A stretch of DNA of 11,826 nt from a virus. Lineage: Duplodnaviria; Heunggongvirae; Uroviricota; Caudoviricetes. Below are positions 660 through 1,374 of this stretch, one piece after another. Below the pieces are notes generated by a model, which saw only the letters and a list, made by a program, of their open reading frames with translations, was not told where the DNA came from and made no database searches. Position numbers and translations under genes: made by a program. Location of the stretch: the IMG/VR virus record IMGVR_UViG_2778261065_000019; one strand, 5' to 3'. The first letter of the stretch is position 1; every line of letters begins with the position of its first letter.

Positions 660-968
660 TTACTTCCTGCGTTTATCCCGCTTTGTATGTCCGTGCTGAA
701 TGCCCCGCAGTGGATCTTCTTTTTTCAGGTCGATCCCCATGTCCGTTAGTGTTTTTGTGGCGGCGGTTCTTATGGCACAAATCAGGTCTCTTTCCGGTTC
801 CCGGGTTATGGTTGCCTTCCGGATACATGCCGTTCGTCGTTCCGTTACATACTGACGCGCTTCATCACTTGCCGCCTGTTTCAGTAACTCACCCCAGCGA
901 TTAGCCGCCCGTCGCCATAAACCTTTCGCTTCCAGTTCTTCCGCTTTGTCATCATGCACCATAAGCAT
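660..968 (-). CDS. PerC-family (Pch-like) transcriptional regulator
   Basis: Translation MLMVHDDKAEELEAKGLWRRAANRWGELLKQAASDEARQYVTERRTACIRK... carries the LE-x-KGLWRRAA-x-RW signature I associate with PerC/Pch regulators. Start is uncertain (ATG at 968 or 962; the track ORF extends to 1031 without an SD). Confidence 0.55.
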   Translation of the reverse strand: MLMVHDDKAEELEAKGLWRRAANRWGELLKQAASDEARQYVTERRTACIRKATITREPERDLICAIRTAATKTLTDMGIDLKKEDPLRGIQHGHTKRDKRRK

Positions 969-1043
969 AATCCCATTGATACCTGTTAAATCTGAATGGT
1001 TGGTTTCCGTTCTTTTGATAATTTCCCTCATAGCTTATTGTAT

Positions 1044-1055
1044 GACAGTACTGTC
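1044..1055. promoter_or_regulatory. 12-bp perfect palindrome GACAGTACTGTC in a divergent promoter region
   Basis: Lies between the divergent starts of the PerC-like gene (968, minus) and the 99-aa gene (1075, plus). Candidate operator. Confidence 0.3.
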
Positions 1056-1074
1056 CCACAATAAGGAATCACAC

Positions 1075-1374
1075 ATGAGAATGACCAGGCACAAAAAACA
1101 GATTCTTGAACTTTACAAACCTGAGTATCGCGATTGGGTGCGGGTGGAGGCCGGAGATCCGCCTTTTGATGTTCGTGGTGTGACAGTGCTGCTCTATGGT
1201 TCCGAATATCAGCGATATCACATAGAGGCAACCCGACGAACGTTAAACGCTATGGTAAATGATGGGATCCTGTACCGCGTGAAAGTGCGCGAACCCCGCT
1301 TTGATGTGCGTATCGGTAGCGATGGCGCTCACTGTACGGTAATCCGGTACGGGCTGGGTAAATCAGATGATTAA
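1075..1374 (+). CDS. Hypothetical protein (99 aa)
   Basis: ATG at 1075 preceded by AAGGA (1064-1068) at good spacing. Translation MRMTRHKKQILELYKPEYRDWVRVEAGDPPFDVRGVTVLLYGSEYQRYHIEATRR... No family recognised. The upstream part of the track ORF (from 946) lacks an RBS. Confidence 0.5.
   Translation: MRMTRHKKQILELYKPEYRDWVRVEAGDPPFDVRGVTVLLYGSEYQRYHIEATRRTLNAMVNDGILYRVKVREPRFDVRIGSDGAHCTVIRYGLGKSDD

Follow-up and report, generated by a model that had tools for sequence, protein, structure and literature searches.

A PerC/Pch-family gene on an Escherichia coli phage satellite and a conserved dyad upstream of its predicted winged-helix neighbor

An 11,826-nt stretch of tailed-virus DNA (IMG/VR record IMGVR_UViG_2778261065_000019; the whole stretch is referred to here as the window) carries a PerC-like gene and a 99-aa gene in divergent orientation, with a perfect palindrome between them. 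The locus raises the question of whether the two genes form a regulatory pair around a shared operator or whether the PerC-like gene is cargo lying beside an element that belongs to its neighbor. A preliminary description had favored a pairing of the PerC-like gene, as satellite cargo, with a gene of unknown function across a candidate operator.

The island and its PerC/Pch-family gene

Judged by its gene content, the window represents an E. coli phage satellite of the PICI (phage-inducible chromosomal island) type, with the following features.

10585 to 11826, minus strand: integrase (profile match)
9864 to 10070, minus strand: AlpA (profile match)
7843 to 8142, minus strand: DUF4222 protein
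6092 to 7846, minus strand: D5/P4-type primase (D5_N/DUF5906; profile match)
5106 to 5528, minus strand: SSB (profile match)
3429 to 4484, minus strand: lambda E-type major capsid protein (profile match)
3082 to 3417, minus strand: gpD-type decoration protein (profile match)
2059 to 2493, minus strand: small Nu1-like HTH protein (profile match)
about 1825 to 1905: cos-like DNA, with matches to about 100 lambdoid phages
97 to 122: attR-like imperfect copy of the tRNA-Pro 3' end (GGGATTTTTGGTCGCACGAGAG; comparison by eye with locus L206)

The integrase, AlpA, and primase genes share one orientation, a full structural and lysis gene set is missing, and the cos-like DNA is lambdoid. No portal or large terminase gene was found in the window, in which the structural-type genes are only those for the capsid E protein, the gpD-type protein, and the Nu1-like HTH protein. 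The nearest related islands are integrated at tRNA-Pro, between yejM and yejO. Window positions 1 to 228 align to the DNA directly after yejO in L206, which contains a closely related island backbone from strain E1, and the comparison by eye with the tRNA-Pro region of L206 was of TGGTCGGCACGAGAG against TGGTCGCACGAGAG. With the attR-like copy at 97 to 122 marking the island end, positions 123 to 1497 constitute a variable, integrase-distal accessory zone. Positions 500 to 1500 are 100% identical in chromosomes of Shiga toxin-producing E. coli (STEC) such as 08-00022 and 99.9% identical in O145:H28 strain 16003, and human and bovine STEC isolates, O145:H28 among them, carry identical copies of the module. 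The island of strain 08-00022 is located between tRNA-Pro/yejM and yejO, and its capsid module differs.

The gene that gives the locus its interest is the following.

660 to 962, minus strand: PerC/Pch-family small regulator, 100 aa (Pfam, phrog_994, RefSeq, and alignments)

The proposed PerC-like identity was borne out by a Pfam search, in which PF06069 matched the protein with 81 bits (cutoff, 22.6; E = 7.7e-23) over model positions 1 to 82 of 90. The protein also matched phrog_994 (E = 2.5e-25), and it is 51% identical to PchE (78 aa), 40% identical to EcCIMP1_025, and 34% identical to EPEC PerC (76 aa). In an alignment of the window protein with these three proteins and six others, D4, A7, L10, E11, K13, G14, R17, R18, A19, A20, R22, and W23 were invariant, as were D33, R36, R43, C46, M75, and R86. 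The family motif A..LE.KG..RRAA.RW is thus retained, and the size of 100 aa fits a family of about 90 to 105 aa. On these sequence grounds, membership of the window protein in the PerC/Pch family is firm. A match to the ANR family (AraC negative regulator; NF033650) stayed at 18.4 bits, below the cutoff of 32 (E = 0.0014; residues 29 to 73 of the 123-aa maximal ORF), and would be a resemblance only; the authors of the EcCIMP1 study likewise noted weak ANR similarity for EcCIMP1_025 (PMC11773190).

The maximal ORF (660 to 1031, minus strand; 123 aa) is overextended relative to the likely PerC coding sequence. The Pfam match covers its residues 24 to 106, RefSeq annotates a 100-aa protein on identical DNA (WP_001360810.1, "PerC family transcriptional regulator"), and the alignments with EPEC PerC, PchE, and EcCIMP1_025 all begin at the Met of the ATG at 962. 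The ATG at 1031 is replaced by ATA in two related contigs (L012 and L013), and neither this codon nor a further in-frame ATG at 968 is a conserved PerC start. The true start is almost certainly the ATG at 962, which places the divergent start codons 112 bp apart, not 43 bp. The divergent genes and the perfect palindrome of the preliminary description are all present, but the PerC gene spans 660 to 962 instead of 660 to 1031 and the gap is correspondingly wider.

PerC homologues are located on plasmids and E. coli chromosomes, and the window gene lies on horizontally acquired DNA, i.e., a satellite island with int, alpA, primase, and cos. Its description as satellite cargo agrees with the presence of these genes together with those for SSB, the capsid and decoration proteins, and the Nu1-like protein, and with the existence of a backbone without it. 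Because the closely related backbone in L206 has neither the PerC gene nor the 99-aa gene, both appear to be dispensable, and by this comparison the PerC gene is dispensable cargo.

The 99-aa gene and the dyad at its start

The neighboring gene and its upstream elements are as follows.

1075 to 1374, plus strand: 99-aa protein of an unannotated family, predicted winged helix-turn-helix (ORF and structure prediction)
1063 to 1067, plus strand: AAGGA, Shine-Dalgarno sequence of the 99-aa gene, 7 nt before the ATG
1034 to 1065: 32-nt dyad, CTTATTGT-AT-GACAGT/ACTGTC-CC-ACAATAAG (inverted-repeat search and conservation)

RefSeq lists the 99-aa ORF as a hypothetical protein (WP_001242999.1), and the protein had no match in Pfam, NCBIfam, PHROGs, or PADLOC. 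PADLOC also gave no defense-system match for the PerC, 99-aa, or 93-aa proteins or for the pRiA4b-ORF3-like neighbor in EcCIMP1-type islands. Seventeen clusters of close homologues were found in E. coli, and a profile search of 1.84 billion representatives retrieved 60 clusters at 50% identity, 19 of them with E values of ≤1e-10. The ORF encodes a genuine and conserved protein, whose family has the consensus MRMTxRKKxIL...GxPPFDVxGV..LL...E(S/A)TRRTLxxMVxDGLLERV...RYGLPG. Most members are 119 to 124 aa long, and the window protein is a short form without the C-terminal tail RYGLPG...VIRD...AIDGE. A fusion to a T5orf172/MUG113 nuclease-type domain occurs in one relative. Two distant family proteins (P0063 and P0050), used as single queries, had no relatives in viral contigs.

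A structure model of the 99-aa protein, based on a 22-sequence alignment, has the H1-(b1)-H2-H3-b2-wing-b3 topology and is similar to solved winged-helix domains, which places it in that fold class with moderate confidence (pLDDT of 60 to 68 over residues 71 to 99; weak Foldseek E values). An earlier model from 12 close homologues had a pLDDT of 51 and was unusable. Hardly any change is seen in the predicted recognition helix, E(S/A)TRRTLxxMV, apart from a few variants with V, N, or A for T. Profile comparisons revealed a weak match to the recognition helix and wing of FurB; the best hit in a PDB profile search had an E value of 0.98, and none of the named winged-helix families (MarR, ArsR, Fur, PadR, AbiEi, and others) matched the family significantly. 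Among 22 family members, only isolated subthreshold matches were seen (HTH_20, 0.062; AbiEi_4, 0.055). The gene previously called unknown thus has no family match, but its product is a predicted winged-helix DNA-binding protein.

Two other identities were considered for this gene. The first was RgdR, a 99-aa protein with an RGD motif described as "present in all E. coli PICIs." It was rejected because RgdR (ECs1581) is the DUF4222 protein encoded upstream of the primase gene, and its orthologue in the window is the gene at 7843 to 8142. The second, a master repressor of the satellite, is unlikely given a near-identical backbone without the gene.

The perfect palindrome between the divergent genes, GACAGTACTGTC at 1044 to 1055, is by itself unremarkable and not rare; the window contains eight perfect 12-nt palindromes, compared with 2.7 ± 1.6 in shuffled sequences. 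This 12-mer is the core of the 32-nt dyad at 1034 to 1065, in which 14 of 16 positions are complementary. An equally good dyad was found in none of 300 shuffles. The right arm overlaps the Shine-Dalgarno sequence of the 99-aa gene, of which AAGG is kept in nearly all relatives.

Dyad variants were gathered by a pattern scan and a scan anchored at gene starts, and only sites upstream of a homologue were kept. The pattern scan fixed the outer arms and so yielded a partly biased sample; the anchored scan gave the same picture. Over all loci, 75 of 211 pattern occurrences precede a 99-aa homologue and were retained. Matches in genome contigs included many chance occurrences in unrelated phyla (by our estimate for 17 fixed bases, about 70 of 89 are expected by chance). 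The retained sites comprise 35 distinct variants, each located 8 to 13 nt before the ATG of a 99-aa homologue in all of the homologues examined. They were found in Escherichia, Enterobacter, Kosakonia, Kluyvera, Proteus, Providencia, Tatumella, Shimwellia, Lonsdalea, and other genera. The outer arms (CTTATTGT and ACAATAAG) are nearly invariant among the variants. The 12-mer core is limited to the lineage of the window, and its place is taken elsewhere by GATAGTGCTATC, GATACCTCTATC, GATAGATGTAAC, GAGACATCTCTC, and others. Homology with other islands starts precisely at position 1034, the left edge of the dyad, and the DNA to the left of it is unrelated between islands.

The constant position, the homology edge at 1034, the kept symmetry, and the invariance of both the recognition helix and the half-sites lead us to assign the dyad to the winged-helix gene and not to the PerC gene, as a candidate operator or promoter element. 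Since the recognition helix and the outer half-sites are conserved together, the 99-aa protein is a candidate for binding this DNA. The half-site motif CTTATTGTA has no copies in the window outside the dyad, which gives no sign of additional operators. A scan of positions 450 to 2100 for a sigma-70 consensus found no promoter. We also considered an intrinsic terminator and rejected it: the dyad has no T-run on either strand and was absent from the terminator scan.

Co-conservation of the dyad and the 99-aa protein fits a homodimer that reads the outer half-sites, and it fits an RNA hairpin as well. In the latter case, which we consider unlikely, the dyad would act in the 5' leader of the 99-aa mRNA by sequestering the AAG of the Shine-Dalgarno sequence and controlling translation or stability. 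The expected geometry, an 8-bp stem, a 2-by-2 internal loop, a 4- to 5-bp stem, and a tetraloop, is exactly that of the predicted fold (-11.7 kcal/mol), and the overlap of the right arm with the Shine-Dalgarno sequence is in keeping with such a role. The fold is, however, unexceptional (z = -1.7), with 14 of 200 shuffles folding as well, and an Rfam scan of positions 1 to 2700 found no family match. Pairing is kept in 92.9% of the dyad cells across the 35 variants, and the four central loop bases vary freely. Compensatory changes occur at two pairs, i.e., pair 5-28 (from T:A to A:T) and pair 13-20 (T:A, C:G, and G:C, with T:G intermediates). The covariation score exceeded that of all 500 shuffles, although the relatedness of the sequences inflates this statistic, and slid registers were only 24 to 47% paired. 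Changes on a single side include seven G.U-compatible cells on the plus strand and four A.C cells outside the internal loop, which leans toward RNA, but this strand bias is not significant. The inner stem is imperfect in many relatives (A:A, T:C, and T:T), including Proteus-type variants with a constant A:A mismatch, which counts against both readings. The outer arms remain invariant in sequence across genera in which the protein is <50% identical, which exceeds the needs of a stem, and the unrelated DNA to the left argues against a conserved upstream promoter. Because the arms are conserved in sequence and not in pairing alone, and because a conserved upstream promoter is lacking, we prefer the operator reading over the RNA hairpin with moderate confidence.

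The PerC cassette and its occurrence relative to the dyad

Comparison with two related islands (L016 and L017) delimits the DNA that contains the PerC gene.

430 to 1033: 604-bp PerC cassette, in which the PerC gene is flanked by about 70 nt on its 5' side and about 230 nt on its 3' side (BLAST against L016 and L017)
595 to 615: perfect 10+10 hairpin, AACTACGAAA/TTTCGTAGTT, 45 nt 3' of the PerC stop codon (sequence)

In BLAST alignments, window positions 271 to 429 correspond to positions 3306 to 3464 of L016/L017, and positions 1034 to 1888 align from position 3474, leaving only 9 nt where the window has positions 430 to 1033. From these alignments, the cassette is gained or lost as one block among related islands. 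The hairpin at 595 to 615 looks like a terminator. It also looks portable, because a near-identical copy trails the winged-helix gene in L016, L017, and L018, where the same stretch of 26 to 27 nt (96% identical) is found 3' of the stop codon.

The two modules differ widely in frequency. The DNA of the dyad and the 99-aa gene was matched in 428 of 5,426 complete E. coli genomes, and the PerC allele of the window was matched in 56 of 5,426. L016 and L017 contain the dyad and a homologue of the 99-aa gene with no adjoining PerC gene. In L018, the same PerC allele as in the window (P0020) is 1.2 kb distant from the dyad and preceded by unrelated DNA; PerC therefore does not require the dyad. A PerC gene located about 1.1 to 1.2 kb from the dyad and a 99-aa homologue is found in L014, L018, L019, and L020. 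Three of these (L014, L019, and L020) are EcCIMP1-type PICIs, in which a 119-aa homologue and the dyad are outermost and the PerC gene is about 1.1 kb further in. A PerC gene with 64% identity stands alone among IS elements in L015, without the 99-aa gene, and pchE of strain Sakai is also without it.

These distributions bear on the possibility that the PerC gene and the 99-aa gene are a coevolved divergent regulatory pair with GACAGTACTGTC as the shared operator. About 50 complete E. coli genomes, as well as IMG/VR contigs, keep the adjacent divergent arrangement. Additionally, the junction between the PerC 5' region and the dyad recurs in L173 beside a winged-helix allele of about 50% identity, which points to a functional link between PerC and the dyad in the paired arrangement. 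We also counted the neighbors of 97 homologue ORFs in the collected loci, a number that includes duplicates of the same islands. An opposite-strand PerC gene lies upstream of only 25 of the 97, no more than 200 nt away in 24 cases and about 1.2 kb away in the other; for 57, no PerC gene was present within the collected DNA stretch, and for 15, it was inside the island on the other side. Islands with only one of the partners (L016, L017, L015, and Sakai), the restriction of the 12-mer to the lineage of the window, and the frequency of perfect 12-nt palindromes by chance all stand against the pair. An obligate pairing is thus largely refuted by these comparisons, and coevolution around the 12-mer is highly improbable. 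The fixed pair with a shared 12-mer operator that had been suggested was not upheld: the dyad follows the 99-aa gene, and the PerC gene is on a 604-bp indel.

It is also quite improbable, if marginally less so, that the PerC-like protein regulates late genes of the satellite or its helper (e.g., the capsid/packaging operon) and is not host-directed cargo. Some islands do have the PerC gene within the replication-packaging string, after ssb and before the capsid gene (Sakai Sp7 and L020), PerC-like PHROGs exist (phrog_994, 10396, 1324, 2608, and 868), and a few phages encode homologues. The window gene, however, is part of an indel cassette at the outer island end, and the closely related L206 backbone does without it. 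In EcCIMP1, the canonical alpA is needed for excision, circularization, and transfer, and PerC is treated as accessory (PMC11773190). Host targets have been demonstrated for PchE (PMC6265319, PMC7369912).

Proposed regulation and comparison with known systems

The best reading, which we hold with slightly more confidence than doubt, is that of an autoregulated winged-helix gene with a PerC gene inserted beside its candidate operator as host-directed cargo. The accessory zone at the integrase-distal end contains two separable modules, 1034 to 1374 and 430 to 1033. A dimer of the winged-helix protein would bind the invariant outer half-sites (TTATTGT ... ACAATAA) of the dyad, which overlaps the ribosome-binding site of the gene and presumably whatever promoter drives it, and would thereby regulate its own expression. 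The PerC cassette sits directly outside the dyad and is directed away from it. PerC transcription most likely would start in or next to the dyad, from a -35 element TTGTGG and a -10 element TAAGCT separated by a 17-nt spacer (1060 to 1032, PerC strand), with TACAAT at 1042 to 1037 as an alternative -10 element. Both promoter assignments are conjectural, being weak hexamer matches made by eye, and form the weakest link of the mechanism. The AGC of TAAGCT is contributed by the cassette side. With such a promoter, PerC output would depend on whether the winged-helix protein occupies the dyad, and both genes would share one control point. By analogy with PchE and EcCIMP1_025, the PerC protein may modulate host regulons (LEE, csgD/curli, and flagella), probably through protein-protein or nucleoid-protein interplay and not as a classical activator.

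A wider role for the winged-helix module is a more tentative idea, rather doubtful but somewhat less so than the RNA hairpin. Together with its 32-bp dyad, the gene occurs in about 8% of complete E. coli genomes as well as in Proteus, Providencia, Enterobacter, and others. The two could form an "end module," hitherto undescribed but widely conserved in PICI-type satellites of enterobacteria, that serves as a boundary switch or insulator of the island, with accessory cargo such as PerC placed beside it. The gene in this scheme would always be outermost or nearly so and read inward. If so, expression of the cargo would vary with the state of the satellite, as might read-out into flanking host genes.

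PerC as satellite cargo is not new. PerC homologues, a common kind of cargo on Gram-negative PICIs that alters host virulence or adhesion gene expression, have been published (PMC6092414, PMC11773190, PMC6265319, PMC7369912), and the window gene, which RefSeq already annotates, adds a candidate to a described kind of cargo but no principle. What is new here is the 32-nt dyad, its tie to the winged-helix gene, mostly away from any neighboring PerC gene, and the 604-bp PerC indel cassette. The module of winged-helix gene and dyad is a modest side discovery. Satellite PerC/Pch regulators can alter how pathogenic E. coli adheres, moves, and performs type III secretion, which makes each new PerC allele in STEC lineages a candidate virulence modifier. 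The winged-helix gene and dyad, unannotated in databases, may mark the integrase-distal boundary in many enterobacterial satellites; such a marker could help to delimit islands and their cargo zones, and the module is a simple candidate for the regulation of satellite cargo.

That satellite cargo can rewire host expression, as the preliminary description expected, is established in the literature, but the direction varies between alleles and is not evident from the sequence. [quoted passage not shown] EcCIMP1_025 silences LEE1, as found in Citrobacter rodentium, and the PerC homologues of the EDL933 and CFT073 PICIs leave LEE1 unaffected (PMC11773190). PchE represses csgD/curli and biofilm formation and raises flagellar gene expression and motility, with little effect on LEE (PMC6265319, PMC7369912). 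The label "activator of virulence regulons" cannot be assumed for the window gene, whose closest tested relatives either leave LEE largely unaffected or repress it. Because the nearest characterized relatives, PchE and EcCIMP1_025, act differently from each other, the effect of the window allele on its host, including its sign, cannot be predicted.

Compared with small autoregulated repressors (the ArsR/SmtB, MarR, BlaI/MecI, and Fur DNA-binding domains), the 99-aa protein belongs to none of these sequence families and has no recognizable ligand or metal site. Its putative half-sites lie about 23 bp apart, center to center, and their binding is predicted.

EPEC PerC (pEAF/pMAR2 perABC), together with PchA, PchB, and PchC of EHEC, is the archetype of the PerC family, and the window protein keeps the invariant motif. 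EPEC PerC, however, is plasmid borne, encoded last in an operon with the AraC-type PerA, and activates LEE1/ler, whereas the window PerC gene is on a satellite. LEE activation is not transferable from EPEC PerC because of the low identity and the behavior of the nearer relatives.

PchE (ECs1588; a "group 3" PerC homologue of Sakai Sp7/O-island 51/EcCIEDL933) shares the Pfam family, a length of about 90 to 100 aa, and alignment from the first Met with the window protein. Like the window gene, it lies on a P4-integrase/AlpA/primase satellite of pathogenic E. coli. The pchE gene is inside the island, straight after ssb on the main strand, whereas the window gene is on an end cassette beside the winged-helix gene. 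The C-terminal third also differs, with the window protein having the basic end HGHTKRDKRRK.

EcCIMP1_025 (WP_000617443.1) of PICI EcCIMP1 is a PerC family protein encoded, like that of the window, by an accessory gene near the integrase-distal end. Unlike the window gene, it is located inward of the winged-helix gene, with two genes and about 1.1 kb in between. The outermost gene of the EcCIMP1 island (L014/L019) nevertheless encodes a 119-aa homologue of the window's 99-aa protein and is accompanied by the same dyad.

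Capsid genes and cos-like sequences

Between 2059 and 4690 on the minus strand, the island has its own genes for a major capsid protein of the lambda E type and a gpD-type decoration protein. The same stretch encodes a Nu1-like HTH protein and a scaffold-like phrog_1999 protein that resembles head maturation proteases at their C-terminal end. Neither a portal nor a large terminase was detected among the island's genes. The related locus L001 has the same flanks, but a ClpP-protease/capsid fusion replaces the capsid module of the window. Capsid modules are thus swapped among otherwise similar satellites. 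The following elements accompany the module.

1836-1890 and 2555-2605: lambdoid cos-like sequence (...GGGGCGGCGACCTCGCGCGTTTTCACTATTTATGA...), two copies, mutually inverted
1893-1903, 1951-1961 and 1981-1990: AACCGGACAT(G) repeat, two direct copies and one inverted, adjoining cos-like copy 1
4718-4749: second 32-nt palindrome, AATCAGAACTGGATG/TTCATCCAGTTCTGATT, 15/16 positions complementary

The two cos-like copies bracket the Nu1-like HTH gene (2059-2493), and the first of them is matched by about 100 lambdoid phages at 90-95%. Such an inverted pair of cos sites, roughly 700 bp apart, is unusual. The repeats that adjoin the first copy could be cosB-like sites to which the small terminase-like protein of the island binds. 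The 32-nt palindrome lies just upstream of the start, at 4690, of the operon encoding a 68-aa protein and the capsid proteins; it may be an operator of this morphogenesis operon, and its sequence is unrelated to that of the palindrome at 1034-1065.

The PerC cassette and its winged-helix neighbor

530-570: four GTCAC repeats (ttGTCACgtcgtGTCACtggttGTCACtctccGTCACg) within the PerC cassette, downstream of the PerC gene
595-615: hairpin AACTACGAAA/TTTCGTAGTT, after the PerC stop codon
1379-1402, 1415-1438 and 1459-1482: three palindromic repeats of 22-24 nt (CAGAATGTAAATTTACATTCTG and two TGCAAATTTGCA variants)

The same hairpin follows the stop codon of the winged-helix gene in three related loci (L016, 3819-3845; L018, 4302-4327; and likewise L017), and these copies are 96% identical to that of the window over 26-27 nt. 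The hairpin behaves as a portable terminator-like element, travelling with cassette boundaries.

Relatives of the winged-helix protein encoded at 1075-1374 (P0045, P0049, the product of L019 6046-6405, and others) are mostly 119-124 aa long, and one, P0100, also contains a fused T5orf172/MUG113 domain. The C-terminal tail RYGLPG..VIRD....AI(D/E)GE..RV, conserved in most relatives, is missing from the 99-aa form in the window, which may be a truncated, DNA-binding-only variant. The three palindromic repeats, spaced 36 and 44 nt apart, lie within the convergent gap between the stop codons of this gene and of the 93-aa phrog_1561 gene. L206, a related locus that lacks the 99-aa gene, retains one such copy along with neighboring GAAAATATCAACGGGTTAGGC-type repeats.

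The attR-like end and the 8640-9860 stretch

130-205: GTATAAC-type repeats (tGTATAACtaaa, cGTATAACcaaaCGTATAACtaaa), just inside the attR-like site
Within 8640-9860: mechanical ORF of 423 aa, without support
9363-9581, plus strand: ORF of 72 aa, no family match

The GTATAAC-type repeats, also present in L206, may be arm-type sites for an integrase or excisionase. ORF calling and family search yielded no convincing gene in 8640-9860; at the matching position, related islands have Icd-like genes and pseudogenes.

An RgdR orthologue

7843-8142, minus strand: DUF4222 protein, 99 aa, directly upstream of the primase

This DUF4222 protein is orthologous (68% identity) to RgdR/ECs1581, an O-island 51 protein published as regulating both LEE1 and motility (PMC3378721). 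Together with the PerC-like protein, it thus gives the island two candidates for a host-directed regulator. At residue 20, which is functionally important in RgdR, the window protein has proline, giving PGD in place of RGD.
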